Source: Octopus sinensis
Lineage: Eukaryota
Assembly: GCF_006345805.1 (NCBI RefSeq)
Contig: NC_043000.1
Span: forward strand, 163,804,001 to 163,868,000
Length of the DNA stretch: 64,000 bases
Direction: 5' to 3'
The translations under genes were made by a program, and so were the position numbers. A model generated the notes under the pieces. The model searched no databases, was not told the origin of the DNA, and saw only the letters and a list, made by a program, of their open reading frames with translations. How positions within the stretch are numbered: position 1 is the stretch's first letter; each line of letters opens with the position of its first letter. Shown piece after piece: positions 1 to 52,059 of this stretch.

Positions 1-604
1 CTAATAATGCCGTGGTTATTTGGTGATTGCCCTCCTTTATTCCTGTTGACCCCTTTTCTTCGCTGTCGTCGTCGTCGTCATGACTATTAACCGTCGTTGT
101 TGCCGGTGTTTTTTTTTTTTTTTTTTTTTTGCCGTTGCCGAATTTGTTACCCACACCGCCGTCGCTGGTGGCAATGTTTGAGATGGTGTTATTCTTCAGA
201 TAGTAAATCTTATACAAATTCTTGGCATGCAATGACGCTTCTTGGTACGTACGGAAACATCTTTACAAACCGACCGACCCACAAACCCAGCGGTTTGTAT
301 TACAGTGACCTTTCCACTTATCACAGTCGTACTGGTGTCCCGTAGCGGCCGACATAAAGATGGGAAATTTTGCACTGCTTGTGTATGAATTAATGCGCAC
401 ACACACAGATATACGTTCACACAGAGATGTACGAACAGATATGTGTATCTCTGTATATATATATATATGCAGAATGAATGTATGTATGAATAAATGCTAA
501 CATATATTTAGCTAATATATGTTTCTATATATATAACACACAAACATTCACACGTATACATATGAACATATGTATGTTAGATTGCTTGTATACATACATA
601 TATA

Positions 605-649
<45 letters not shown>

Positions 650-802
650 ATAAGTGTATATATATATGTGTATATATATGTATGTATATATATGTGTATA
701 TATATATATATATGTATATATATATGTATGTATATATGTATATATATATACATATGTGTATTTGTATATATGTATATATATACATATAGATACACACACA
801 CA

Positions 803-1151
803 CAGGGTGTTCGGGCTAAATTTGACAGTTTGCATAAAAGTAGAAGAAAACACAATGTCCTATCCAATATAAAAGTATTTTAAAAGGTCAAACAATACCA
901 ACAATATCAAGACGGTTTTTGGAACCTGGCGCATGCGTTCGTTACGGTCCCTGGGAAGATCTTCGAGCAACTCCTGGATCTTGACCATCAGCTCGGTTTT
1001 GGTGTTGCAAGTAGAACGGTTGGTGTTTTTCTCCATCCTCCACACACATAGTAATTCATGGGATTACAGTCAGGGAGGTTGCGAGAACAGAAATATGGGC
1101 TGGGGAAGTCATAGAAATTCTTCGACAACCACTTCTGACTATTTCCAGTTG
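803..1151 (-). mobile_element. Tc1/mariner-superfamily transposase relic (C-terminal part plus one TIR)
   Basis: Minus-strand translation across frameshifts gives SQKWLSKNFYDFPSP..PDCNPMNYYVW..EKNTNRSTCNTKTEL, matching the WPPxSPDxNPxDYxxW catalytic block. CAGGGTGT TIR-like start at 803. Confidence 0.75.
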
Positions 1152-1160
1152 TACATTATT

Positions 1161-1206
1161 TGCACAACGTTTCGGCTGATATACCCTCCAGCCATCATCA
1201 GATGTC
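1161..1206 (-). ncRNA. Minimal type I hammerhead ribozyme motif in the Penelope pseudo-LTR
   Basis: Minus strand reads gacat CTGATGA t ggctg gagggtatat cagcc GAAA cg TT gtg: both core boxes, a 5-bp stem II and a palindromic stem III. Confidence 0.75.
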
Positions 1207-1256
1207 TTGGGGAAATTTTGAACCTGGGTCCTCATTCCTAAGTGTATTCTTTGATG

Positions 1257-1318
<62 letters not shown>

Positions 1319-1324
1319 GTTGTT

Positions 1325-1355
<31 letters not shown>

Positions 1356-1489
1356 TTATTATTATTATTATTATCATTATGCAGGTCACTACCTGGAATC
1401 TTGGGGTTAGTAGCCCGCGCTCTTAACCACAACGCCATATGCCCGTGGGTAATTATGGAGTGAATTTCAGGGCTTATAAATCTAAAACT

Positions 1490-2475
1490 TATAAACTAGC
1501 TACTTCCGTATGGACACCGATATATATCGACAAGAGGACGGTTTAGCTATGGGCTCGCCATTATCACCGATATTAGCCAATATATATATGGAATACTTTG
1601 AGAATTTGGCTTTAGGATCAACACCACTAAAACCAACCGTATGGCTGCGATATGTTGATGACACCTTTATACCCTGGCCCCACCAGGAAGATGTCCAAGT
1701 GCTGTTAGATCATGTGAACTCAATAAAGCCATCCATACAGTTCACAATGGAAAAGGAAAAAGACAATTAGCTAGCATTCCTGGACGTATTAATAACACGC
1801 ACCAAGTATGGATTCAGGACATCCGTATACCGCAAGCCGATCTTCAATGGACAATACCGCAACTTCAATTCCTACTATCCATACAGTATAAAGCGAGGGA
1901 TTGATCAGTGCCTAGAACATCGAGCAAATAATATAAGTAGCGATCGTGATACACACCACGAAGAAATGATCAAGCTCAATAACAATCTATTAAGCAACAA
2001 CTATCCCCAAAACATACTATCCACTCTAATTATGAAGAAAAGCGAGGATGAAACCAATAAATTGTCCACAGTCAATACAACACTTCGCAAGGAGTAATAC
2101 AACACTTCGCAAATATCTCCTTCGAGTAAAACCACCAATGAAAAAGAATATGATCAAAGACTGCATGTACACCAACCCATGCAGCCGTTGTAGGTTATAC
2201 AAAGGCGAAACATGCTGCCCCTTCAAAATAAGGGTAGACGAACATCACAAAGCTGTGACACAAGGAGATATTGCTGAATCAGATATCGCTGACCATGTAT
2301 GGAAAAATAGAGACACCTCCCCCAGTGGGATGAAGGTAAAATAATAGACAGAGAACACCACTGTAAAATACGAAAACTAAAAGAAGCAGCACATATGCTA
2401 GGACACAACCACCTAAGCAGACCAAGTGCAGATATGAATAGCATATGGGAAACGGTATTACGGAAGAATAGAAAA
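1490..2475 (+). pseudogene. Penelope RT C-terminal half plus GIY-YIG endonuclease (stops and frameshifts)
   Basis: YRQEDGLAMGSPLSPILANIYME, WLRYVDDTF, IQFTMEKEKDN*LAFLDVLI, TSVYRKP, then CMYTNPCSRCRLYKGET..FKIRVDEH and KIRKLKEA. Confidence 0.9.
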
Positions 2476-2520
2476 TATTAGATTTATAAACCCCAAAATT
2501 CACTCCATAATTGCCCACGA

Positions 2521-2580
2521 GCATATGGCGTAGTGGTTAAGAGCGCGGGCTATTAACCCCAAGATTCCGAGCTCAATTCC
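2521..2580 (+). promoter_or_regulatory. tRNA-derived Pol III A/B-box segment inside the Penelope pseudo-LTR
   Basis: A box tggcgtagtgg at 2526. The B box is degenerate here but intact (gagttcgattcc) in the sister copy at 11861. Inverted copy at about 1390-1445. Confidence 0.65.
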
Positions 2581-2798
2581 ATAACATCGAAAAATACCTC
2601 ATGATGAAGGGTATATCAGCCAAAACGTTGTGTTAACAACAAACAAGATGACAAATATCCGTCAACTGTAAACAATGTACATAATTCCTCATCTCTTAAA
2701 TACAGAGCTGTATTTCCAGTTGGCCATGACTTTGTAATCTTTCTTGTCTATATCTGTGTGTGTATGTGTGTATGTATGTATGTATGTATGTATGTATG

Positions 2799-2830
<32 letters not shown>

Positions 2831-3296
2831 ATGGCGAAATTTTATGCTTTGAGACAGATTTCGTCAAATCGATATCACGACAGCTAGTGCGCAAAATGCC
2901 TAAATTTTTTTCAAGAAATAAAATGGTCTTACCTACTCAAGACCTGAAATGGTGGGGAATTAAAACAACGAATTGAAATAATAAGCTTTAGCAAATCAAA
3001 ACAATTCGCATTGAAAGGAAGAATTCGCAAATGCTAAACAGATTACTGTTAATAAGCTGTCTGTTTATTATACCCATGAAACATTTTTCGTCAAATTGAT
3101 GTCACGATGGCAAGTGCGAATAATGCCGAAATTTTACGATTTTTGAAAGATCGATACTGATTACAAATCGACTTTTAAAAAATTCCAAATGCGTAAGTCA
3201 CCGCATGGACATAAGCCTCACAGACGTGTCAAATTTCATCAAGGTCTGTTGGACAGACTCGGAGAAGTAACAAATTCACGAACGCGCAAACTTTCC

Positions 3297-3362
<66 letters not shown>

Positions 3363-3474
3363 CATCATCATCATCATTATTTTTATTATTATTATATACA
3401 TATAAGGATATTATTGTTTACAATAATATCAAATGGCTTAGCATGCGTAAAAAAACCACAAGGAGAAAATTTAT

Positions 3475-3670
3475 TAATTAATAATTAAGAGTGCTACAAA
3501 TAGCACCAGCACGCTAAACATAGCAGTCAGAAAGCAACTGCAACCACAAATTTTCACTGATAAACATTATTCAATTAATGTGCACCAGAGAAAATTTGTG
3601 ATTGTAGTCGCCTACTGACTTCTATTTTTAGCGTGCTGGTACTATATGTAGTACCCTTAATTATTAATTA
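3475..3670. repeat. Imperfect ~195-bp palindrome (foldback/MITE-like)
   Basis: taattaataattaagagtgctacaaatagcaccagcacgctaaa... pairs with ...tttagcgtgctggtactatatgtagtacccttaattattaatta. Confidence 0.8.
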
Positions 3671-3672
3671 TG

Positions 3673-3711
<39 letters not shown>

Positions 3712-3716
3712 TAATA

Positions 3717-4475
3717 GCAGCTGTTTCCAATATCATACCGTAAAGAAGGCGACGAGCTGGCAAACACGTTAACACGCCAGGCGAAATGCATAACAGTATT
3801 TCGTCTGTCTTTACCTTCTGAGTTCAAATTCTGCCGAGGTTGACTTTACCTTTCATCATTTCGGGGTTCGATAAATTAAGTACCATTTGTGTACTGGGGT
3901 CGATATAATCGACTGGCCCCTTCCCAAATATTTCGAGCCTTGTGCCTGGAATAGAAAATAATATTATACCGTAAAGGAAAAAAAAAATAGTCGTCAGGAA
4001 TTTGACTAAAGGTGTGAATAACACCTACTTCGCTAGAAATAGGAGCTAAAATGCTCAAATAAAGCATATAACACATTCTCTGATATGAGTCGCAATCACC
4101 CCAAACACCGAACCGAGAATTCCTGAGACTGTCCGACCAGTTTCGGCTATTTCCGTAGCCATCATCAGTAAGGTTAGCTCGTTCGGTTGATTTCGGGCTA
4201 CCTCGCGTATCAGAGTATATATATTGATGATAGTTATATATGGATGGTTTAGCAGATCGTTAATGTGTATACAAAAAATTAATAAGAACTGTGGTTTGCA
4301 ATATTATACCGTAAAGGTAAATTATAGTCGCCAACTAAACCTAACTAAGTGTGCGAATAACACCTACATTGCTAGAAATAGGTGCTAAAATGTTCCAATA
4401 CTGTTTATAAAGCACATAAAATATATTCCGATAGGGGCTGCAATCGCCCTGAATACAAAACCGAGAACTCAGTGC
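3717..4475 (-). repeat. About 1.6 diverged tandem units (~340 bp) carrying a hammerhead motif
   Basis: 3960-4120 is repeated at 4300-4470. Minus strand 4170->4134 reads CTGATGA t ggcta cggaaa tagcc GAAA ctg GTC. Confidence 0.6.
3746..3959 (+). mobile_element. tRNA-derived SINE family A (aaggcggcgagctggcag head, Nin/Deu-like central motif)
   Basis: Head with gagttcaaat B box, then ctttcatc.ttcggggtcgataaattaagtacc. 17-bp TSD aatat(c/t)ataccgtaaag at 3729 and 3960. Confidence 0.85.
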
Positions 4476-4479
4476 CTCC

Positions 4480-4514
<35 letters not shown>

Positions 4515-4939
4515 GTGAAGTGCAAAGTTTCAAGTGTATGCTTGCTGATTGGGAGAAGAGTTACTGTCATTTTGGATTAAGTTCTTATTTGCGGACCGAG
4601 AAAAGATTTGTATTTTGTTTTGTTCAGTTTTTACACATATTCATTTATCCGATGCCTAGGCTTCACTTAGTTTGCTACTTTCTTACTTTCTATGAGTTGT
4701 TCTCATCGGTCTAAGTTTCTCGTTACTCCGAGTAATAGAGAAACTTGGAGGAACAAATGTGATAAAACCTCACCTTGTTGAGTATCTTACTTTCTCTCTT
4801 TTAGACATGGAATCATAGAGTGAAACACGCTTACAAGTATGAAATAATAAATCTATGAATCAATAAATACATCGCTAATATGTATAAAACTGTATGTGTG
4901 GAAATATATTCAATCATATGTGAATACATGCACACATAC

Positions 4940-6500
<1,561 letters not shown>

Positions 6501-7059
6501 ACAAACTCCGTCATAAATCAATAAATGTGTTATCTTCTAGGATGTCCTTCCTTGATGTGTTTATAACAGAGTAAAGATTTCATTTGATTTAAGAAACTGC
6601 TTCTTCGGCATGCAGATGGCAACGGGTGGCAGCGTGGGCGGGATAGTTATGATAAAGGAGAAATGGAATTTCCATATCATAACATATGAGTATGGATGAG
6701 ACAGTTTGTTGTGATTCTGTATATTTGTGTGAATGCCTATACGTTTGTATGTGAGTGTTTCAGTAAAGTGTCTGTGCTTATGAACTTCCTTTTAAACATG
6801 CCTGCATACGTATTTGAGTAAATGACAATGCACAAGATCCACGCTGGCAACATTCTGTTCTGTACGATCAAGGTTAAATCTACACATTACAGCAAGAAAT
6901 GACAATATAGGTTGATGGCATCAGACTACCTCATGGAATGGATGTTAGGCACAAGATGAAGCCGGCATTGAGGTTGATGACACTAGCATATTCACTGCAA
7001 ATTGACTGGAACTTATAAAAGTAAAGAAAAGATAAGAAGCGAAAAGTAAAAAAGAAAAA

Positions 7060-7322
<263 letters not shown>

Positions 7323-7669
7323 ACTGCCTCTATGAGAACGTTAACGCTGGTTTCATTCCGAATAATACTACAAGAGAATATTGACGTCCCTTCTGGTTGA
7401 AAGCCGACAACCTGTTTAGAGGTGAAGGTACAGGGACGCAGGAGTTTCAAATTGAGGAAGAAAATTTAACGATATTGTTTTTCTTTAATTTTTGTTTGTT
7501 TTCCATTTTCTTTTTTGCGTGGATAAAGAACTAATGCAAAAACCAGAAGAAAGAAAGAAAGAAGTTCAAAGGCTGTGTGTATCGTTCTCTAGTTCAAAAA
7601 CGAACATGAGAACGTCGCCAAGGCGGTTTGTGTTCATTGAAGGCAGAAACCGAAAATATCATTTTAACT

Positions 7670-8180
7670 AATATTTTATTTGATGAACTCCGAAAAGTTG
7701 AAAGGCAAGATTGACTTCAGCGGGATTGGAACTCAGAATGTGAAGAGCCCGAATAAATACCATAAAAACAATTCCTACGGCACTCTTAAGATTCTACCAC
7801 CTCGCTTCCCACACAGATTCACAAATAACGATTATCTTTAATATATAAAAATAATCCTGTTTTCTCTTTCAAAACTAGAAAAATAATTTCCTGAGATATT
7901 TCAATCAACGATGTTTACTTTCTCCAGAACTCGTCCTTGAGCTCGGCAATAAAATATATAAGCTAACTATTATTCAGTGAAGTGAGTTGGCAGAATCGTT
8001 AAAGCTCTGAAAACAAGCGCTAGCAATATTTCCGTTGACTCTTTACGTTCTGAGTTCAAATACAACCGAAGTCATTTTTTACCTTTCGTCTTTTTTGCAC
8101 TTTTAATGTATCCATCAAGTATTGAGCTTGATGACATCTACTTAGCCCCACCCCTCAAAATTGCTGGCTTTGTACCTTAA
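7670..8180. mobile_element. Two old family-A SINE copies, head-to-head (7670-7807 minus, 7980-8180 plus)
   Basis: aactcagaatgt and gagttggcagaatcgttaa...gttctgagttcaaat motifs. Confidence 0.6.
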
Positions 8181-8459
8181 TGAGAAGTCAGTATCATCTA
8201 CTAAACGTTTAGGTTCAGTCAATAAATCTCGACGACTGTCAAACCTATCACGAATAGAAAAATAACTCAGCTTCGTCGAGGCTATAGAGAATATTAGATA
8301 TGAAAATGGAGAATTTATATTCAAAACCGCGAGTTGCAGATTTTCTCGAGTCAGACTTGGCTTTAAATAGTGTGGCAACTACAGTCATTTTGATAATCCT
8401 GCCTTCTTACCAAGAATAACTTTATAATCTCCCCTTACACTCTGTACCTCCTCCCTAAA

Positions 8460-8508
<49 letters not shown>

Positions 8509-8879
8509 ATATTTATACACGCTTCGATATATTGGATTTTTTAAATTCATTTTTATGCTTTACTGGTGTATAATTCATTAGTTTCCTATAATTTATTTAC
8601 AATCACATTCTTTTTTTTATTTTCAAATATATAAACCATTATTATCATCGTCCTTATTATTATTCATGTTGTTGTTGTTGTTGTTATTATTATTATTATT
8701 ATTATTTGCTTTTTTACAGTCATAGAAATGTATTGTGTTAGCACGGAAATCAAATTTTATCCATAATTCGATGCATATGCATGCATCTGTATACATACCT
8801 TTTTATACACTCACATATGCAGTTATTATCCCTTCTATGTCACTGAGATGCGCATGTGTATGTATGCATATATGTATGT

Positions 8880-8908
8880 ATTTGTACTTACACCAACACA
8901 CGCGAGCA

Positions 8909-8970
<62 letters not shown>

Positions 8971-9387
8971 GCGTATGCGCATGAATTAGAATGCATTTTT
9001 CCTTAATAAAGATATATGTATGAATATATCTGCACATACATATACATACACGCCCATAGACACACACAAACACATACGCTCACACACACACATATATATC
9101 AATATAAATATATATATATGTACAGATACAGATATGTGTGTGTGTGTGTGTATGTGTTTGTGTATACATACAAATGTATATATGTATGCATGTATGTGTT
9201 TGTGCAGATGTAGATATATATATGTGTGTGTGTGTGTGTGTGTAAGTATGCATGTCTGTATATATATATCTTTATATATATATATGTATATATATGTATG
9301 TATATACATATATATATGTATATATGTACATATATATGTACGTATGTATATATATGTATGTATATACATATATATACATACGTACAG

Positions 9388-9428
<41 letters not shown>

Positions 9429-10870
9429 CATACAAGCATACATACACAGATACATACATACGTGCATACATATGCATATGCATAAGCATATATTATGATA
9501 TATATATAAGCATTATATGCCCACGCTAAATAAATTATTCATAATTTATGTATGAAAATAGATGTACACTTATATAAACATACATACATATACACCCACA
9601 CACCCATACTTATACATACATATATGTACGCGCGTGTGCATGCGTATATACATAAGCGTGTGTGTACATGTATACATATATACATATGTGTGTGTGTGTG
9701 TGTACATAAATGTGTGTGTATTTGTGTATGTATGTATTTGTATATATTCGTGTGTTACTAATATATTCATATGCGGAGGTTATTGCATGTGTATATGTAA
9801 ATGTTGTTTTTGGAGATGTGGATCAACGGGTGAGACAGTTTGCTTTCAGAGAATGTATGTGACAGTGTATATATATTGGGAAGAGAGCTCGTGTGGCTTG
9901 TGTAGATGATTGTATAAGCGTGAGGTTAGCTGTTGGCGTACGGTGTTCAATTTCCCACTCTGCCTGCAAACTGGGATTTCTAAATCATTTCCACGCAACA
10001 CGAAAATTATGTTTTGTTTTGTTTTCTATTTTTTTTGTTCTTGTTTGTTTTCCCTCTACACACGATATGATGGATCATTTTGCTTCTACCTTTTTTTTAT
10101 CCACCACCACTTCCAGGCTCTAATACTGCTATCACCACACCACCACCACCACTACCACAATCACCACGATGATCATTACCGTCGCCGCCGCCACCACCAC
10201 CATCACAACTACAACCATCAGCAAAACCACCACCACCACCACCACACCACCACCACCACCACCATCACTACCACCAACAATCTCATCGTTACCGCCAGTC
10301 ACAATCGCCACTACCACCACCACTATCACCGCAACTACTACTACCACCACCACCACTATTACTACAATTGTTGCAGGTAACAACTTCAGCATCGCCACCA
10401 TCATCCCGAGCATTACCAACATTACCATGAATATCTTCCTCGTCAACACAGAGGTCACTCGCCCCATTAAATACAACGCCCCCCCCCACCACCACCACCA
10501 CCACCAAAACAACAATAAGTGCAACAATAACAACAAACAATAGCTCGACTGCAGCCATCAACGTTAATATCGCTTAAAAAAAACACAACCTCCACCACGA
10601 GTAGGAAAACCACCATCTCCACCACCACCACCACCACCACCACCAGGGACCCTAAGTTACCCATCATCATTGCTATTACATTCACTACCTCCACAGGTAA
10701 CACCACCTCCAGCACCGCTATCATCACTATTAACACCACTGCCACTGCCACTACGAATAGCGATACCAGCAACAACACCACCAACAACATCTCTAACGAA
10801 AAGTACCACCACTACCATCCCCTTCGTTTTCACTTAACACCGCCATTAAAAACCCTGCCTCCACCACCAC
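8880..10870. repeat. TA/TG compound microsatellites followed by (CAC)n-rich low-complexity DNA
   Basis: Directly visible. A short unique island lies at about 9770-10120. Confidence 0.9.
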
Positions 10871-10901: not shown

Positions 10902-11203
10902 GTGGAGGCACATGGCCTAGTGGTTAGAGCAGCGGACTCGCAGTCGAGGGATCACGGGTTCGAATCTCAGACCGGGTGATGTGTGTGTTTATGAGCGAAA
11001 ACACCTAAGCTCCTCGCGGCTCCGGCAGAAGGTAATGGCGAACTTCTGCCGACTCTTTCGCCACAACTTTCTCTCACTCTTTCCTCCTGCAGCTCACCTG
11101 CGATGGACCGGCGTCCCGTCCAGGTGGGGAACCTATACGCCAAGGGAACCGGGAAACCGGCCCTTATGAGCCAGGCGTGGCTCGAGAAGGAACAAACAAC
11201 AAC
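10902..11203 (+). mobile_element. tRNA(Arg-like)-derived SINE family C with (AAC)n tail
   Basis: tggcctagtggttagagcagcggactcg...gggttcgaatctc head. TSD aagggcaagcg at 10891 and about 11205. Resembles the octopus OR SINEs (from memory). Confidence 0.85.
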
Positions 11204-11683
11204 AAAGGGCAAGCGATGGAGCCGGTACATAGTCGTTTTATCTGCTGGAAATGGCAATTAATTTCCTTCAAAGTACATACAACTCGGGAATCATTGAGAA
11301 AATGGCACCATTGTGTATGAGTCTGAGATGCACAAGAAGACGGAGCAGGCACGGTTGGAACGTCTTTGGTCGATTACTGCTAACCTGGAACTAAACAACA
11401 ACACAACTATCCAGCCAGTGCGAGATCTTCTATGCGGTCGCTCAACCAGATAGAAATAGCAGGCAAGTGCTAATCACACCCTAATGCCTTCAATAAGCAA
11501 TACAGTGGCAAATGGAGTCCTCGATGTGATCAAATGTTCGTTACTGGCGCGTCTTTGATCGTAAGTCTGCTCGACTAAACACTATGATCATCACCACCAC
11601 CATAACCAACAACAACAACAAAAATAATACTTGTTTACATCATTTACATTCAACGGATATTTGTCCTCATCTTGTTTGTTGTT

Positions 11684-11729
11684 AACACAACGTTTCGGCT
11701 GATATACCTTCCAGCCTTCTTCAGGTGTC
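11684..11729 (-). ncRNA. Minimal hammerhead ribozyme motif
   Basis: gacac CTGAAGA a ggctg gaaggtatat cagcc GAAA cg TT gtgtt. Stem I is GACAC/GUGUU. Confidence 0.75.
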
Positions 11730-11776
11730 TTGGGGAAATTTCGAACCTGGATTCTCATTTCTAAGGTATTCTTCGA

Positions 11777-11815
<39 letters not shown>

Positions 11816-11910
11816 CATTATTATTGTTCAGGTCACTTGGGCTACTAACCCCAAGATTCCGAGTTCGATTCCAAGCAGTGACCTGAACAATAATGATGAT
11901 GATGATGATG

Positions 11911-11941
<31 letters not shown>

Positions 11942-11995
11942 TAATAACATCGAAAATACCTTAGGAATGAGAACCCAGGTTCGAAATTTCCCCAA

Positions 11996-12041
11996 GACAC
12001 CTGAAGAAGGCTGGAGGGTATACCAGCCGAAAGGTTGTGTT
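11996..12041 (+). ncRNA. Minimal hammerhead motif with mutated stem III
   Basis: gacac CTGAAGA a ggctgg agggtata ccagcc GAAA gg TT gtgtt. Confidence 0.6.
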
Positions 12042-12399
12042 AACAACAAGCAAGATGAGGACAAATATCCGTCGAATGTAAATAATGTAAATAATGTAAA
12101 TAATGTACATAATTCTTCATCTCTTTAATATAGAACTGAAAAATACTACTACTAACAACAACACCACTGAGATAGTTTGATCGAACCCATTTTGACGAAA
12201 CTCGTTATGGTCACCACCAAAATCTAGACGCGTACAGAAATAGAAGACAATGGAGAGATTAGACCATATCCACGGCCACGTTGTACTCCTACATCACTGC
12301 ATATCGAAGAGTGTTTTATGATCTTAAGCTAAGTGGTTTGTATGGCATAACAGACCGCCCCCCCCCCCGCCCCCCAGGTTTGCACCTGCCTGTCATATG

Positions 12400-15300
12400 T
12401 ACGCAGATAGAGCTTACCTGAAGCTACATATCAACTAGGACATTATCACTTCAACAATGCTATCAAATAACCCGTAAAAGAAAACATAAAACACTCTATA
12501 GAGTTAAATACTATCACCACCAACAAAATAACAACAATCCCCCCACACACACACACAACCGTACACCTTGTATCACAATAACAACCACAAGTAATATACC
12601 CACACTAAAACAACAAGTAAATGCTTAGATAGTTCCTGTTATCACCGTAAAGGTAACATTGAGGTATCGCATCCTCTGCGCATGCCTACGCATCATTAGT
12701 CCCGACATGCCTAGCTCTCCACGTATTATACTTTAACAGCAAATGGACCATCAGCCCAGCGGAAGTCGCTCCCCTCCACATGAAATGGGAAAGCAAGCGT
12801 TCCCGTCTGGTTAACCACGAAGCTGACCAAGGTACGACGGTCATGCTATAGCAGATGGTGAGAAACCTATGTTATCCTTATTTACTGACCTGTAGAATAC
12901 TCTATCTGGATATGACTTAGATGATCCGGTGCGGTTTCTCCATACTCCCATTGGCACATTCGGGAAATCCAGTCGGTATCTATACGTCTGAGTAGGTTGT
13001 TTGCGGGGATCTCCCACCCTTTCTTCTATCAGGTACTCCGACACAATACAGACGTGCATCCAAGATAACGTTCCAGTCACCCACTAACATTAAAGGTCGG
13101 GACGTTTAGAGAAAAAAACCCTGGTGTCTGAAGAAATCCGGCTATCCTACCCCTGCCGGAGCATTAACAGCCACCACTCTGAAGGCACCCCGTCGCTACC
13201 GTTCACATCCAGGACCATCAACTTTTTTTCTGGGTTCAAGTAGACAGCCCTTATCTTGATATTCCGACTCTTCCGGAACAATACTACTTTTCGGTTGACA
13301 TGGATATATATATATATATATATATCGCATTCACTCGAAAAGGGACATGTACGCTGTTGGATAGGGGAGTCTGATCTCGCTAATGGATACAGCATCTATA
13401 TCAAGCGACCTGAGATTGATGAGAAGGCGACCCCGGGCAACGTGCATTTATACTGCTTATTTTGAACTGGGTCATATTAAACCACAGAGAAAGAGAGAGA
13501 GAGAAAAGAAACACTTATTGTGGAGGAACGAGTGTTTCGTCCCTCAAGCTAGATATGGATATTTCCACGAGTCTTTTGCTGATATTGGACCTAATTTCTC
13601 CTTGTTTATGGCATTAATTTCCTAAAGTAGTATATGTTTGTTACAAAATTTAGATCATTTTTATATGGTGGAATTCTATTGATTAATTTGATGTAGTTGT
13701 CGTGTATGATGTCTGTATTTTCGTGTAAGTACTCCATCAGTGTTTTATTGTTTGTATTTGAGACGATGTAGTTAGTAATGATTCGTTTTGTTCTGATGGG
13801 GGAAGTATTTTGATTGTTAGTGTTTTGTGCTTCAGATGATGATGGTGGTGATAGCAGTGTTGATGCTTGTGATGACAGTGGTAATGGTGGGGATTGCAGT
13901 GGTAATGGTGTTGTTAGTACTCGCGTAGTTGCCGTTGGGAGTGGTACTGGTGCATCGTTACTCGAATCTTCCCTAATTGTTCGTATCTACCAGTTTTTTG
14001 GATTGACATATTTTTGTTTCCTTTTCTTTTCTTTGCCTTTAATACTCTGCAGCACCTTCACTACATGACAGGTCTGTGTGGTGTGAGGCGAGGTAGGTAT
14101 GTCTTGAAGAAGTTGGTAGAACTGATTTTTTGAAATGTTTTGGGGGTTATCTCTGGCTGTTTTTGTTGCTGCTGTCTGTGATGTGGTAGTCCTTGGTGAT
14201 GGTGTATTTCCTATTGCTTTAGTTGCTTCCACTTCTGTTATTGTTGCTGCTACGGCTGTTGTTACTGTTGTTCTCGCATTTGGTAGTTTTCCTCTTGTTG
14301 CTGCTATGAACGCCTTCCTCTACCGGGGACTGTTACTGTTGTATTTGTTGTTATTCTTGGTAATGGTGTGGTAGTGAAAGTGCTGATGTGTCAGCTGAAG
14401 AACTGGTCTCCCTTCTTCCCTTTCCTGTAGGCAAAAAGCCCTGAGATAGTGCTTGTTACCACGCAAGTGAGAAATCAGCCTTCTACTCTCGAGACGGTTA
14501 CGGGTAATTTTGTGCCAGTTGGTAGATTAATCAGGTCCGGTGTCATTTCCATGCTCTGATTGTCCGTCTGTATTAGCTTTTCCATACCTTGATCTGACCA
14601 GGTTTTATTGGGGCTTCTGCAGAATAATAGATTTCTGTATAAGGAAAAGAACCACTGCCACCATCCAGCGGATGTTGATTTCTGGAAGCACGTAAATTAT
14701 CTTCATTTTAAAAATCCTACGATCAAAATAAATCAGTATGAGGACCAGTTCGTTACTAATTAGGGTGGTTAATTAGGTGTGCTTTCTGGCCTCATCCTTT
14801 GTGGCGAATCTTACCTCCACAATTCCGAATTTTTTTCCCTTGACTATGTAAGTTTTTGTATTCCAGGCTGGTCTAAGGAACTTTTCAGTCTGCTGGTGTG
14901 TCGCCTATTCCATTTTTTTTCTTGTATATGAGTGTTTGCAGATTGGTTTGTTCAGTGCCACGTTCCGGCCACGTTTCTCCAACATACTTTTCGCACTTGT
15001 TAGTTCTTTGAAGTCGGTAAAAACGTCCTTGTTCATTTGATGCATCGCGTCAACGAAACGACTAAAGCTAGATTTACAAGTTTTATTTTCGCTGTTTTTC
15101 ATATTGGCGTTAATGGTGTAGGTAGCGGTGGAGGTAGAGACTCCAGGTGTGTTGAATGAAGAAACTACTTTTCTTTTTTTATTCTGTGGCCTCATTTTTG
15201 TTGTGGTTTTTCAATTTCACTTTTGTTGTTTTTTCATTTGCCTTTTCGTTTGTAGTTTTGTTACAATGCAGTGTGATGGTGCGGTTGTGGTAGTGATGCC

Positions 15301-15620
15301 TTCACATTCTTTTTGTATTGTTGTTGTTGTTGTTATTCTTGTTCTTGTTCTTGCATGTACATTGTCTGTTAACAATATTAGTAGGTAGTGGAGGAAACAT
15401 ATTTTCATAATGGCTGTTGGAACAGCCATTTCTAGGATTTGATAGATATGTTGTATTTTTTAAAATATGATATTTTCAGTTATATTTTTCGCAAAGCCAA
15501 CTCACTCTAAGCAAAGCGAGGTTGTTTGTTGATTAAACAGCCCAACAAGAAATACAAACGCCAAACATCAAAATTTAAACAGAACTCACGGAGCTGCAGA
15601 CGCGTAAGTTCTCCTTCAAA
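12400..15620 (-). mobile_element. Decayed L1/Tx1-like LINE: 5'UTR, ORF1, AP endonuclease; RT absent
   Basis: ORF1 remnants include an RRM-like KFGIVEVRFAT and a degenerate CCHC knuckle at about 14480-14430. ORF2 is described in the next feature. Ends are approximate. Confidence 0.7.
12850..13475 (-). pseudogene. AP-like endonuclease of LINE ORF2
   Basis: MTQFKISSINAR..LRSLDIDAVSISE, VVLFRKS, LMLVGDWNVILD (GDWN at 13081-13070), WRNRTGSSKSYPDRVF. Interrupted by a TA run at about 13305. Confidence 0.8.
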
Positions 15621-15644
15621 GTACAAACAATAGTGATAGTTGTT

Positions 15645-16305
15645 TCTACTGTAGGCAGAAGGCCTAAAATTTTGGTAAGAGACCAGTGGATTACATCAAC
15701 TGGTATATATCTTATCGAATCCAAAAAGATAAAAAGCAAAGTTGACTTCGGCGGAATTTGAGCTCAGAACGTAAAGACGAACCAAATGCTGCTAAGCATT
15801 TTGTCCGGCGTGCTAACAATTCTACCAGCTCGCCGTTTTAAGTTTCAAATTTATGCACAAGGCCAGCAATTTCGGGTGTGGGGGTAAGTCAATTACATCG
15901 ACCTCAGTACTTAACTGGTAGTTATTTTCTCGACCCGGAAAAGATGAAAGCAAACTCGACCTCGGTAGAACTTGAACTCAGAATGTACAGACGGAATAAA
16001 TCCTGCGAAGATTCTTTTTTTTTGTCCGGCACGTTAACGTTTCTGCCAGCTTGTCGGTTCACTGCCTTCAATAATAAAAATCATCATCATGATAATGGTT
16101 TCAAAATTTGGCGCAAGGCCAACAGTTTTAGGGGAGAGGTAAAATGACATCGATCCCCAGCTTTCAGCTGCTACTTATTTTATCGAACTCGAAAGGATGA
16201 AAGGCGATGTCGACCTCGACGGAATTTGAACTGAGAACGTAACGGCAGACGAAATTAGGCTACGCATTTCGCCCGGCGTGATAACGTTTCTGCCAGCTCA
16301 CCGCC
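15645..16305 (-). mobile_element. Three tandem family-A SINE copies
   Basis: Three repeats of ..gatgaaaggc..gtcgacctcggcggaatttgaactcagaacgta..tctgccagctcgcc, ending at about 15835, 16060 and 16305. Confidence 0.8.
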
Positions 16306-16363
16306 TTAAAACATATAAAAGAATAAAATAATAAAATATATTTTAATAATAATAATAATAATA

Positions 16364-16412
<49 letters not shown>

Positions 16413-16428
16413 TATAATAATAATAATA

Positions 16429-16459
<31 letters not shown>

Positions 16460-16467
16460 TAATAATA

Positions 16468-17020
16468 ATGATGCCCTGATGCAGTACCAGGCAGTGCTCT
16501 CATGGCTTCTGATCTTAACTGATTGGAAGTGTTATCATGTACATTGTTTTGTCTTGGTATAAAAGATGGGCTACAGCAAATATTCTGCTCAATACCACAG
16601 ATTTGCTTGTCAGTTGTTTGACCTTAACCAGTTGAGCATGTCCCTTAGTCGCTGACGATATGTGCATCTCTGATCACGAGCAGAAGTAGTGGGGGAGCAT
16701 CATAGCCATGTGTTGAGAGGGATGCTTTGGGGTTTGAATAGTTCACCTCTGGAAACATGGTGGTTCTTTCAACATCCTTAAACAACCCTTATTCGGGGAC
16801 CGTTTGAGCGGATGGGTTACTCACCTGAAGAAAATTCTAACTGGGCCTCACCTGCAAGGTCATGTGCTGTTTATCTTGATATGAGATCACCATGTCGCGC
16901 ATATATGGTTGTGATGCATGTGCCTGGTGTACCTTTATCAGACGGGTAGTCATGATGGGTATATTGGGCTTCGTATATTTACCCCAGTGTCACTTGATGG
17001 CATGAACTGCTCTCTCACTC
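16468..17020. mobile_element. ~550-bp non-coding element embedded in an (AAT)n tract
   Basis: Sharp-edged complex sequence with (AAT)n on both sides (16325-16467, 17021-17510). No ORF or tRNA head seen. Confidence 0.5.
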
Positions 17021-17099
17021 AATAATAATAATAATAATAATAATGATAATAATAATAATAATGATATAATAATAATAATATAATAATAATAATAATAAT

Positions 17100-17146
<47 letters not shown>

Positions 17147-17204
17147 TGATAATAATAATAATAAATAATATAATAATAATGATAATAATATAATAATAAT
17201 AATA

Positions 17205-17243
<39 letters not shown>

Positions 17244-17359
17244 CAGCAACGATAATAATAATAAAAATAAAAAATAAGATAATAATAATAATAATAATAA
17301 TAATAATATAATAATAATAACATTAACAGCAACGATAATAATAATAAAATAGAAAATAA

Positions 17360-17396
<37 letters not shown>

Positions 17397-17471
17397 GCAA
17401 CGATAATAATAATAAAAATAAAAAATAAGATAATAATAATAATAATAAAAATAAAAAATAAAATAATAATA

Positions 17472-17509
<38 letters not shown>

Positions 17510-17589
17510 GCTAATTATTCTTTGATGATGTTTATATAAATGCGTCAAATGGTTTTAATTAAACATTCACACACATCCATACAAGCATG

Positions 17590-18441
<852 letters not shown>

Positions 18442-18619
18442 AATAATTATGATTTAGTTGAATTAGGTACTTAAGTTGAGGCACGAAGTCAGTGCGGTAT
18501 TGTTCGCACAGCTCGAAGTTAGGCTTATTTGAAATTGATGTATTGCTTGCATTGATCGATTAAATGGAGACGCTTGAAACGGCCGTAATGCACTGATACC
18601 TGGACAGCCTTGTTACTCC

Positions 18620-18651
<32 letters not shown>

Positions 18652-18767
18652 ATATATATTATATATATAATTAGATAAAGATAGTTATGGCTGGTCTAAG
18701 GGTCTCCCCTGTGTTTCACGTCCATGAAGCGCTTAGCTTTACGCTGTCTTTTCAAACCCTTAATGTT

Positions 18768-19060
18768 TCAGTGGTTAGAACGTTGAGCTCACAATCATGA
18801 GGTAGCGAGTTCTATTCCCGGATCGGGATGTGTATTGTATCCTTGAGCAAGACACTTTATTTCTTGTTGCTCCAGTTCCCTCAACTGTAGAAATGAATTG
18901 CGACGTCACTGGTGCCAAGCTGTATCGGCCTTTGCCTTTCCTTTGGATAGCATCAGTGGCATGGAGAGGGGAGGTTGTTATGCATGGGTGACTGCTATAA
19001 AACAACCTTCTGTTTATCGGATCAACTGGAACGCTCATCGTCGTAACCAACAGGGTACCA
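18768..19060 (+). mobile_element. tRNA-derived SINE with CORE-like motif
   Basis: agtggttagaacg..gagttctattccc head followed by ccttgagcaagacactt. Confidence 0.7.
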
Positions 19061-19175
19061 GATAGAGATAGATCGTTGTGTATACACACACACACGCACA
19101 CACACACACACACACATGCAAGTTCTGCATTGATCAAAAGCGTTACACAAGCACCATTCTGTCCATTTTTCAGGT

Positions 19176-19440
19176 TAAAAAATTAATAAATACGCAATTT
19201 TAAGAGCCTACCCATACTCATGGGCCCGGTTTCCCAGTTTCTATGGTGTAAGTGTTCCCCAGTTGGACGGGACGCCAGTCCATCGCAGCGTTACTCATTT
19301 TTGCCAGCTGAGTGGACTGGAGCAACGTGAAATGAAGTGTTTTGCTCAAAAAAACAACGCGTCGCTCGGTACAGGAATCGAAACCACAATCTTACGATCA
19401 TGGTACTGACACCCTAACCACTAAACCACACGCCTCCACC
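19176..19440 (-). mobile_element. tRNA-derived SINE (family C tail, CORE-like middle)
   Basis: Minus-strand head gtggaggcgtgtggtttagtggttagg..ggtttcgattcc. TSD tttttcaggt at about 19166 and 19442. Confidence 0.8.
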
Positions 19441-19950
19441 TTTTTTCAGGTAACCGAGAAAAAAATGCTTCTTCTCAATTTCAGACCTTCTAGAGTGTTA
19501 CATGTGATGTGAGATGGGGGTTCAAGGTGCAGTTTTTCATCTCTAGTTAGAAATAAGGAACGTTTCCATTATATTTTCATTATTATAATTTTACCAGATT
19601 GCCAGCTTTGCTCATTAAACAAAGCAATTACGCTAATCAGTTACCTGAAAGGTAGTAAGTTATCTGAACAGGAGGGTTTTGCTGACATGAAGCCTCCAAT
19701 TTGAAGGATGGGTAGAAGAAAAGGTATTAATACATGTGATGATTGTGATGGATCGAGATAAGTAGTGAATATGAAATGATGAGTTCGCATAGAAGCCATG
19801 GCTAGCCAGGAATTTGCAAAATTATCCGTCACTTTTGTTGTTGACGAGTTGTTCTCGTTCCCGTTCTTGTTAGAACTTTGCTCCTATATCCCTCCCTCAC
19901 TCTCTCTTTCTTTCTCTCTGTGCGTGTGTGTGTATGTGATTGTGCGTATG

Positions 19951-20046
19951 TTTGTCCTAGTTGCCTGTTAAGTCTTTGTTCTAGTTGCTTGTTAAGCGTT
20001 TGTCCTAGCTGGTTGTTAAGCGTTTGTCCTAGTTGGTTGTTAAATG
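19951..20046. repeat. 24-bp minisatellite x4
   Basis: Unit tttgtcctagttg(c/g)ttgttaagcg. Confidence 0.9.
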
Positions 20047-20209
20047 CTTAGAAAAATGTGTCATTGCAAGACGTTAAGGCTGTGATGAGAGGAAAGTTTG
20101 ATATCTATGAATGTATGAAGCATTTCTACGTGCTTATTACACACATGTATGGCTATGTGTGTGTTTTTGTGTGTGTATTTGCGTTGTTGAGTATTTGAAC
20201 GTGTGCGCG

Positions 20210-21054
<845 letters not shown>

Positions 21055-21371
21055 CTGGCAGCGTATTTATAAATTCAAATCTTGTATTCTCGTTTGGGCA
21101 AAATGAGTGGCAAAACGATTTTCCGAATGAACCAAAAGAAAAAATAAAGTTTTATTTGAATAAATATGAAAACACAAAACCGCAATAAAAGCAAAAAAGT
21201 AACTAATGATAAACGAAGTTCCTTGCTGTTTATCTCTTTGCCCTTACGTGACCCTACCCTATTCTCTTGTATCCTATATTTTCAGTTTTCCATTCCACCC
21301 GGGTTTCTATACACAATTATTAAAGCTTAAAATATCTGACCCGACTGTGTGTGTCTGCCCCCGTGTGTTTT

Positions 21372-21415
<44 letters not shown>

Positions 21416-22459
21416 TGTGTGTACTTTATTAAGAAAACACCCTAAAAATTCATGTCTGGAGTAATAGCTGTATCTTGTATTGGAGAGGACGAAATCGCAA
21501 TGCCAAAATAACTGTATTAGAAACAAAAGATGAATACACAAACGGATAAGCGACTACGTTTGATTGAAAGATGCCAAGTAAATTGTTATACGTTGAGGAT
21601 TGTGTATGAATGGAGCGTCAGGTATAGTCGTTTATATGAACTATCGTACTTTATGAGCAACGGAAGAAAGAAGGGCAAAGTTGATCTCAGTGTCTAAAGT
21701 GACGTAATTATCACATTAGTCTTCAGGGAGGCAGCTCCGTGCGAAGCTGGTAACAGGCTCAAGACAAATGCAAAATATAATCCTGATTTCAATTAATAAT
21801 AAACCCAGGCCAGATGAGAAATGTTGGCTGCATTTGAAACGATAAAAGAGCCAGGCCTGATCTTAGCTGTTGGCTCCATTTCAAACTTCTCGTCAAGTAT
21901 TTTAGTAATCAATGCTAAATATATACGTAATACTTGTGATTTATATATGGCTTGTGCATAAGTACGTGTACGTGCAGAGTGTTTTAATGTGTTTTAATCA
22001 GCTGAGGTAATTATGCTCCTTTACAGCCCCACCAAAACTGGTTGGAGAGAGAAATAAAGGCGTCCCAAAAACTGCAGGCTTGACCCGTATGCTTCCAATG
22101 AAGTGAACTCTGCTAAGAGGTCACACGAGGCGTTAAACCGAGCGGCGCAGTAAATCTACCGTCCAATTAAACATGGCGGTATTCGAGCTCAGAACGTAAA
22201 AAGCGATAATAAATATCGCAAGGCACCCAGTCCGATGTTCTTACAGTTACATTTATACACTGGTACATTTTTATCGAACCATGAAAGGATGAAAGGAATG
22301 ATATTCAATTCTTGGTATTTAATCCTTGACTCACAAATTGCATTTGCAACGTGCAAGTTTACTGGTTGATTTCTTTTTCTGAAAATCTTAGCTTATCCAG
22401 TTTGTCACTTAGGCATTTACTCATAAAAGCAACTGCACCAATTATTATTGGTATAGATG

Positions 22460-50101: not shown

Positions 50102-50595
50102 AAAAGCAACTCGGCGATTTCATGAAGAGAAAGTGGGACAGAACATATTGTAAGTGAAACTAATTTCTGAATTGGTTGTGTTAAATAGAACTCAAAAAAC
50201 AGAAATAAAAAAAAAGAAAACTGGAATGTCGGCTGTCTGCAGTGTTGTGTTCAAACAGAACTATGGAATAAGCCTCAGGCAATAGGAAATACATTAATAC
50301 TGAACTTCAGAGCTGAGACCTCAATCGCCCCGACGGTTACTGACATCAGCTCAGGAATATGACTTGCATACCTCTTTATGTTGAAGCTATCTTACTCAGA
50401 TATCCACCATCATGTTGATATATCACGCTACAACGACACTGATATTTGTCGGGAAACCTGATATTATTTTTCATCTCTCAATATATTGAAAATGTGATGC
50501 TCATGTTGTGTTTGGAAAGCATTTCGAAAGCGGGTAAGCAGATTGGATACGAGGATAAGGTCAAATGCAAAATTCAATAATGGAAATATTGTGCT

Positions 50596-50807
50596 ACAGT
50601 TCTATATTTAAGAGATGAGGAGTTAAGTGCATTATTTACATTATTTACATTCAACGGATATTTGTCCTCATCTTGCTTGTTGTTAACACAACGTTTCGGC
50701 TGATATACCCTCCAGCCTTCTTCAGGTGTCTTGGGAAAAATTCGAACCTGGGTTCTCATTCCTAATGTATATTTTTCGATGTTGTTGTTGTTGTTATTAT
50801 CATTATC

Positions 50808-50860
<53 letters not shown>

Positions 50861-51000
50861 TATTATTATTATCATTATTATTATTACCATTATTATTATC
50901 ATTATTATTATTACCATTATTATTATCATTATTATTATTACCATTATTATTATCATTATTATTATTACCATTATTATTATCATTATTATTATTACCATTA

Positions 51001-51047
<47 letters not shown>

Positions 51048-51139
51048 TATTATTTATTATATTATTATTATTATTATTATTATTACCATTATTATTATTA
51101 TCATTTTATTTTATTATTATTATTATTATATCATTATTA

Positions 51140-51214
<75 letters not shown>

Positions 51215-51284
51215 TATTATTACCATTATTATTATATTATTATTATTATTATTATTATTATTATCATTATTATTATTATTATTA

Positions 51285-51316
<32 letters not shown>

Positions 51317-51408
51317 TATTATTATTATTATTATTATATTATTATTATTATTATTACCATTATTATTATTATTATTATTATTATTTATTATTATCATTAT
51401 TATTATTA

Positions 51409-51445
<37 letters not shown>

Positions 51446-51451
51446 TATTAC

Positions 51452-51502
<51 letters not shown>

Positions 51503-51636
51503 TATTATTATTATCATTATATTATTACCATTATTATTATCATTATTATTATTACCATTATTATTATCATTATTATTATTACCATTATTATTATCATTAT
51601 TATTATTACCATTATTATTATCATTATTATTATTAC

Positions 51637-51711
<75 letters not shown>

Positions 51712-51815
51712 TATTATTATTATCATTATTATTATACCATTATTATTATCATTATTATTACCATTATTATTATCATTATTATTATTACCATTATTATTAT
51801 CATTATTATTATTAC

Positions 51816-51889
<74 letters not shown>

Positions 51890-52050
51890 GTATTATTGTT
51901 GTTGTTCAGGTTATTGCTTAGAATCTAACTCGGAATCTTGGGGTTAGTAGCCCACGCTCTTAACCACTACGCCGTATGACCCTGGGCATATGGCGAGCGC
52001 AGGCTACTATCGCCAAGATTCCGAGTTAGATTCCAGGCAGTGACCTGAAT
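50596..52050 (-). mobile_element. Penelope pseudo-LTR derivative with ~1.1-kb (AAT)n expansion and a short inverted head
   Basis: Hammerhead at 50685-50730, ATT/ACCATT/ATCATT tract at 50780-51900, tRNA-like head at 51905-51980, plus-strand partial head at 51985-52050. Confidence 0.85.
50685..50730 (-). ncRNA. Minimal hammerhead ribozyme motif
   Basis: gacac CTGAAGA a ggctg gagggtatat cagcc GAAA cg TT gtgtt. Confidence 0.75.
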
Positions 52051-52059
52051 AATATATAT

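Follow-up and report, generated by a model that had tools for sequence, protein, structure and literature searches.

A tRNA-Arg-like head, a likely promoter, in the terminal repeat of an octopus Penelope family

Described relatives of the element

Much of the anatomy of Penelope elements, including the inverted arms, the tail and the minimal hammerhead, is already known (PMC8557442 and PMC3846280, in their available portions). In PAc of Anolis the ORF begins at stem II of the hammerhead and the reverse transcriptase (RT) starts inside the ORF, at 111-118 plus a tail of 30-40 nt; the first 172 nt of the ORF are needed, and cleavage is dispensable in vitro (PMC11167929). PAc, Penelope of D. virilis and the octopus family described here have in common an RT with a C-terminal endonuclease, a repeat overlapping the ORF start, a hammerhead at the first codons, two internal RT starts with an optional tail, inverted 5' arms and partial tandems (PMC11167929; available part of PMC2377424). 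The octopus family differs in that its repeat opens with a tRNA-derived head bearing A and B boxes, where the 5' ends of copies fall, whereas the promoter of D. virilis Penelope is internal, TATA-less and LINE-like (PMC2377424, same part).

The hammerheads of metazoan Penelope-like elements (PLEs) agree with that of the octopus family in the short helix I, the unpaired base before stem II, the G10.1-C11.1 pair, the palindromic positions 15.2-16.2 and the occurrence of opposite-strand pairs 100-700 bp apart. The available portion of their description (PMC4209133) reports weak cleavage, as a dimer, and mentions no promoter; in the octopus family a deletion scar at the cut site is measured in addition.

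The schistosome SM-alpha and Sj-alpha repeats also have a Pol III-type promoter followed by a hammerhead (PMC6765202, in part), and the non-LTR retrozymes are likewise short hammerhead units related to PLE pseudo-LTRs (parts of PMC7229834 and bioRxiv 10.64898/2026.07.22.740005). The former, however, are non-coding tandems and the latter are defined by tandem units, whereas the octopus unit is the end repeat of a coding element together with its ORF start, and lies single or head-to-head. In the main text of the bioRxiv report, as far as it was available, the words 'tRNA' and 'promoter' do not occur. The TRIMp3 elements Cassandra, Helenus and Ajax likewise carry, in a terminal repeat, a captured Pol III promoter of small-RNA origin, but these are non-autonomous LTR elements whose autonomous partners are argued to need Pol II (PMC10886601, available sections), while the octopus head lies in a coding element. 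Pol III promoters are thus known from non-autonomous elements, namely Cassandra-type TRIMs (PMC10886601) and schistosome alpha repeats (PMC6765202), both sources being available in part. Neither a tRNA-headed autonomous Penelope nor a Pol III promoter in any autonomous retrotransposon was found in the literature searched, which left Repbase, Dfam and most subscription papers aside, and the accessible parts of an Octopus repeat annotation (PMC13282606) and a mollusc SINE paper (PMC4758252) describe no such element.

The insertion at 1152..2710 and its family

The window, i.e. the whole 64,000-nt stretch of Octopus sinensis DNA that was analysed, contains a Penelope insertion at 1152..2710 on the plus strand, which is 5'-truncated and carries one inverted arm and a broken RT-endonuclease. 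The initial annotation had proposed a 12-bp target-site duplication (TSD) around the whole insert and an inverted terminal repeat at its 5' end, and both are present: the TSD, TATTTCCAGTTG, lies at 1140..1151 and 2711..2722, and the inverted pseudo-LTR arm occupies 1152..1485 on the minus strand, including about 40 nt of 3' UTR and stopping at the short 3' end of the family. On the same strand, the tRNA-Arg-like head of this arm (1384..1444) has a mutated A box (1437-1427) and has lost its B box. It is followed by a 129-nt (AAT/AAC)n tract (1251..1379) between head and start codon, by an ATG (1233..1235) which opens the ORF frame in sister copies and is likely the start codon, and by an intact minimal type I hammerhead core (1166..1201) within the first codons of the ORF. 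Read from 1201 to 1166, the core has the order typical of PLEs (CUGANGA-N-stem II-GAAA-palindrome-NUH, with a short stem I); the predicted cut falls between 1166 and 1165, and a deletion just past it weakens stem I.

The coding region (1495..2481, plus strand) matches RT (Pfam RVT_1, E 2.5e-9) and the C-terminal endonuclease of the Penelope homolog P0003 (tblastn, E 3e-89), with which the window copy is colinear through the endonuclease region. Three lesions interrupt it, namely a stop codon within the frame (1768-1770), the loss of some 60 nt near 2075 and a frameshift near 2320; the stop codon of the Penelope ORF is 2479-2481. The RT and endonuclease region assign the family to the EN+ Penelope-like elements (Penelope/Poseidon type), and the pseudo-LTRs, partial tandems, inverted 5' arm, optional tail and TSD are all those of Penelope-like elements. 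The motif YSIPC..YKGET, which we take to be the endonuclease motif named GIY-YIG, and C/H residues are visible in sister copies; the Pfam GIY-YIG model gives no score on the family proteins and has a precomputed match on three homologs. By eye, the linker shows no extra Zn-finger-like Cys/His motif of the kind described for the Neptune/Nematis linker (PMC8557442, available portion). Many close homologs (P0001-P0030), mostly with 53-68% identity, lie on long ENA contigs.

On the right side, all on the plus strand, the 3' UTR (2482..2518) ends in a short palindrome (2512-2523) which is the fold-back point of many stubs (see below). The head (2519..2582), which had been placed directly after the ORF, thus starts 37 nt past the stop codon; its A box (2526-2536) is intact and its B box (2571-2579) is mutated. 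The AAT tract, present on the left, is deleted here, as had been noted. A dead hammerhead remnant (2601..2629) follows, and then a tail (2630..2710) of N-terminal ORF codons which reaches the long 3' end of the family. The reported CTGANGA-stem II-GAAACGTT core is therefore borne out for the left arm only (1201-1166), the right arm having lost half of stem II and having AAAA in place of GAAA. The quoted string running from A box to B box is absent from the insertion, and neither arm has a usable pair of boxes: the only exact A box of the window is the one at 2526, and the only exact gagttcgattcc is at 11861, within a different insertion that has no A box. With the B box mutated and the hammerhead dead in the right arm, and the A box mutated and the B box gone in the left, insertion 1152..2710, judged by its bases, cannot itself work as a promoter-ribozyme unit. 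The initial annotation also overlooked the double role of the hammerhead and tail, which serve as the first codons of the Penelope ORF.

Two other members of the family lie in the window. One, at 11636-12138, is a two-armed stub without ORF, which lost its A box at the junction and contains the only exact B box of the window; in the other, at 50595-52053, the AAT tract has grown to about 1.1 kb and the fold-back junction lies near 51985-51995.

The tRNA-like segment is a fixed part of the pseudo-LTR and not a stray SINE. A query of the endonuclease region only gave 1,945 candidates, of which 40 were scored and 30 fetched. Of the 29 fetched copies other than that of the window, 25 have the head after the ORF; merging four near-identical ones makes this 22 of 26. 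Three of the four exceptions join the UTR to the hammerhead by deletion, and one ends earlier. Conversely, 27 of 28 head-anchored insertions carry a hammerhead in at least one arm, and no independent SINE combining the same head with a different body was seen among them.

The head is colinear with the host tRNA-Arg(ACG) from +1 (score 53, versus 12 ± 6 for shuffles), which is its best match among the 10 tRNA types recovered in a partial tRNA set. Its A and B boxes fit the consensus (A box TRGYNNARNNGG, B box GWTCRANNC) in the column majority of 144 copies, and it thus has the 5' tRNA head of tRNA-derived SINEs. The acceptor and T stems are unpaired, and the cloverleaf of a functional tRNA gene is not recovered by ARAGORN or Rfam. 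ARAGORN reports no tRNA in the 64-kb window, and Rfam no tRNA or hammerhead in window positions 1-10000 or in the family copy L178; these models miss degenerate heads and minimal hammerheads. Release of the head by RNase P was set aside, because the stems do not pair.

Several neighbouring or related repeats may be mentioned. A tRNA-derived SINE at 10906-11200 has a head whose 5' half resembles the Penelope head, and it could be a relative of the donor; as the best match of the Penelope head it was rejected, since over all copies it scores below tRNA-Arg (median 51 vs 58). Another SINE-like repeat, presumably a common octopus SINE, lies at 3740-3960. A duplicated repeat at about 3960-4470 contains, on the minus strand at 4168-4120, a second hammerhead-like core (CTGATGA-stem II-GAAA), unrelated to the first and degenerate in stem I; it is probably part of another Penelope-related repeat. 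Elsewhere in the genome, a tandem array (G000:C2:3121910-3162223) has about 95 listed copies of the tRNA-Arg(ACG) motif with a period of mostly about 206 bp.

Copy ends and the origin of the stubs

At the front of the gene the order is head, (AAT)n, ATG and minimal hammerhead, the last lying within the first codons. The repeat passes directly into the ORF in full-length and tandem copies, and in copies anchored at the N-terminus the head, AAT tract, hammerhead and tail run on into it uninterrupted. From the ATG, about 25 nt past the AAT tract, the reading frame stays open across the hammerhead as far as the conserved N-terminus, and P0003 (56% identity) encodes the same hammerhead-derived peptide close to its start. 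The 3' ends of the family form two clusters with 25-35 nt between them, one near ORF nt 120-130 and the other near 154. Both the front-end layout and the internal RT starts are those of PAc.

The 5' ends are equally concentrated. Genome-wide, exact 18-mers occur 1,172 times for the UTR, 5,870 times for the head (55 nt downstream) and 8,609 times for the hammerhead, with none for the reversed controls, so that the copy number rises 5-fold at the head. Scaled by the exact-match rates in fetched copies (0.27-0.44), these counts correspond to about 2,700, 14,000-22,000 and 24,000 arms, respectively. The first 30 head matches on C1, taken in order of position, represent 28 insertions, 7 linked to an ORF and 21 not; none starts in the UTR, and 21 begin at or in the head. 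Counted by eye, 18 of the 21 ORF-less insertions have their 5' end no more than about 6 nt from +1 or fold back at that point. In a best-match sample, which is biased to the window copy, 28 of 29 lack the ORF. Among the seven N-terminus-anchored insertions that reach the head, three start at it and four continue upstream; the full-length copy L205 also starts there. For 9 of the 30 head matches a candidate TSD of 11-14 bp could be identified (cf. 12 bp in the window copy). The commonest form of the family is therefore an ORF-less unit running from head to tail, with the hallmarks of Penelope insertion.

In tRNA genes Pol III starts in the +1 region, which is where the stub 5' ends fall. The explanation we favour, to which a probability of roughly 60% may be given, is that Pol III starts at the head and that the Penelope RT copies back to that start. 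Pol III would begin just 5' of the position of tRNA +1, and RT would begin internally, about 120-155 nt into the ORF as in PAc, and copy back to the RNA 5' end; the products would be stubs running from head to tail, often folded back at the short palindrome. If RT does begin within the 5' repeat and proceed to the end of the RNA, the 5' ends of the stubs would mark the start site used by the master. Several observations weigh against this reading: the +1 palindrome might by itself halt RT or serve as the primer of a fold-back, the longer arm is not predicted by which arm bears the AC loop (8 vs 4 of 12), the RNA runs show no pile-up of starts, the absence of T4 runs is weak evidence and a second family (L220) has two of them (see below), and the translation of an uncapped Pol III RNA has no explanation.

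The head might instead be a passenger, left by an old tRNA or SINE insertion, with the 5' pile-up arising from an internal Pol II start there or from RT stopping or folding back at the palindrome on longer RNAs. The internal promoter of Drosophila Penelope would fit this (PMC2377424, available part), as would the generality of palindromic inverted junctions in Penelopes, e.g. in Adineta (PMC3846280, in part), the fall of the fold-back junctions exactly on the palindrome and the restriction of the RNA runs to embedded copies. A hand count of the first 100 listed rows, however, gave about 36 clean fold-back junctions versus about 47 distinct ORF-linked sites, so that fold-back covers only part of the 3- to 5-fold excess of stubs. 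Many stubs, moreover, begin at +1 without fold-back, this start falls on tRNA +1, the boxes have survived where the stems have not, and a similar layout recurs in the distant family L220. A passenger head is accordingly considered unlikely.

The initial annotation regarded the unit as a self-propagating SINE or retrozyme. Such a Pol III lineage, with its own masters and parasitic on the Penelope enzyme, would agree with the excess of units over ORF-linked copies (about 3-5 to 1), with the many units in which both boxes survive together with a complete hammerhead core (46 of 169 arms), with the lack of T4 in 71 of 83 arms and with the slightly lower divergence of solo heads (6.9% vs 8.6%, in biased samples). 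The markers nevertheless speak for common sources of ORF-linked and solo arms: AA:AG is 26:25 in ORF-linked and 37:42 in solo arms, and T:A at marker N7 is 31:8 and 36:16. Over six marker sites there is no diagnostic difference; the unit is the repeat of its partner with shared markers, and no masters distinct from the partner were recognized. Tandem units arranged head to tail, as in retrozymes, and long arrays of them are absent from the 28 position-ordered insertions, in which units are single or head-to-head. Finally, the units end at the RT start sites, and PAc needs the first 172 nt of its ORF. We regard such a lineage as very unlikely, and the earlier proposal is not upheld. Stubs and ORF-bearing copies have the same TSD length, the same two 3' ends and the same subfamily markers; the stubs are therefore likely dead-end products of Penelope masters rather than a separate SINE lineage. 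Most of them are likely dead ends, since they extend no further than the RT start and so do not include the more distal ORF bases on which PAc depends.

Runs of four T (T4) and RNA reads were surveyed in relation to the preferred reading, i.e. a Pol III start at the head. Over 2,322 columns, with coverage counts that include repeats of the same place (nine known duplicates being dropped), no T4 site is common to at least 10% of the copies, compared with 37 A4 sites. The chance of this is about 0.02 with independent bases, 0.11 in a dinucleotide model and 0.003 in a post hoc codon model. The ORF strand is A-rich, G4 is absent too, and 7 of 43 other Penelope RT-EN stretches are likewise without T4. 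Phe codons lean to TTC both in the octopus family, with 6:16 against 55:59 in the remaining pairs (p 0.10), and in L220, with 8:17 against 101:62 (p 0.008). Among 35 clusters L220 ranks first and the octopus family sixth in this bias, with several head-less families between them; the bias is strong versus 12 controls and weaker versus 33, and synonymous shuffles within single copies are not significant (P 0.11-0.94). T4 avoidance in the ORF is thus only suggestive as a mark of Pol III.

In three 2026 RNA-seq runs of a related organism, of which about 6% each was covered, the repeat reaches about 4,900 reads per base (both directions summed) and the ORF N-terminus is only 3-30 reads deep. The depth is the same in both directions, with no strand bias, no molecule starts pile up at the head or the cut site in the three runs, and 74-87% of the reads extend into unrelated flanks. 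The reads come mostly from copies embedded in host transcripts, and argue neither for nor against Pol III.

Deletions at the predicted cut site, a second family and implications

The full hammerhead core is present in 46 of 169 arms; energy folding gave no hammerhead fold, as monomer or as dimer. Of 145 arms, 27 have lost bases from the 8-nt stretch across the predicted cut, whereas six control windows together give 22 of 804 (p 3e-11); shortening is more frequent in ORF-linked arms (11/32) than in others (16/113; p 0.018). The likely origin of ORF-linked copies is a passage of RT over the hammerhead cut, either between RNA ends or on a ligated circle, and such crossing would leave microhomology deletions of 1-5 nt. 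Deletions of 1, 2, 3 and 5 nt are observed, and 18 of the 27 are the same 3-nt loss, the outcome that would be expected of a 2-nt-microhomology jump across a cut after GUU. This loss also turns up in some 8% of the RNA reads and in contigs from two other organisms. Alternatively, the hammerhead may never cut in vivo, the deletions being slippage or a few in-frame master variants. Short repeats in the GTTGTGTT context and the predominance of a single deletion would suit this, and cleaved RNA ends were seen neither for PAc (PMC11167929) nor in the RNA-seq of the related organism. The common deletion keeps the frame, so that part of it could come from masters, and there is no excess of clean 5' starts at the cut site. 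On the other hand, the more slippage-prone AAC-repeat window is shortened in only 7 of 134 arms (5%, vs 19% at the cut site; p 8e-4), and the deletions of different lengths occur on both states of two subfamily markers and most commonly in ORF-linked copies. The absence of cutting in vivo is thus somewhat improbable, and the scars bear on the question whether the weak PLE hammerheads cut in vivo.

A similar arrangement is seen in L220, an intact tandem Penelope of 875 codons with 38% identity to the octopus family, in a metagenome set of 79 loci. Both of its repeats have an A box, a B box and a short AAT tract, then ATG and hammerhead. It is the one locus with this layout among the 16 of the set that have a hammerhead-like core and at least 250 nt upstream; T4 runs occur in the corresponding region of 11 of the 15 others, and the layout arises in shuffles at 3e-4 per 320 nt. 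The tRNA likeness of L220 is modest against the host tRNAs used (z 2.7-3.7, with 2.3 for the next locus), its unit holds two T4, and neither Rfam on L220 nor ARAGORN on 60 of the 79 loci detected a tRNA or hammerhead. One of the two T4 lies in a histone-stem-loop-like hairpin just past the hammerhead, at 2719-2734 (Rfam Histone3, E 0.15, below threshold). Seven head-less Penelopes (L223, L228, L232, L234, L244, L245 and L250) have ATT/AAT tracts, 15-36 nt in length, on the upstream side of the hammerhead; as the PAc endonuclease prefers ATT, these could be targets of the element itself.

A further proposal, which we put forward only tentatively and with rather more doubt than confidence, is that the whole 2.6-kb coding unit is a T4-free Pol III product of a captured tRNA promoter, cut by the hammerhead to a unit-length and perhaps circular RNA and translated without a cap, and that the same capture took place in at least one other distant Penelope lineage.

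SINEs are non-autonomous elements with Pol III promoters. From the sequences compared here, a promoter role of the head in the octopus Penelope family is likely. If this is true, the question arises how an uncapped RNA yields an RT of about 830 residues. A single LINE-like element would then also have given rise to SINE-like stubs in the tens of thousands, and it would offer a route for the origin of hammerhead SINEs such as SM-alpha.
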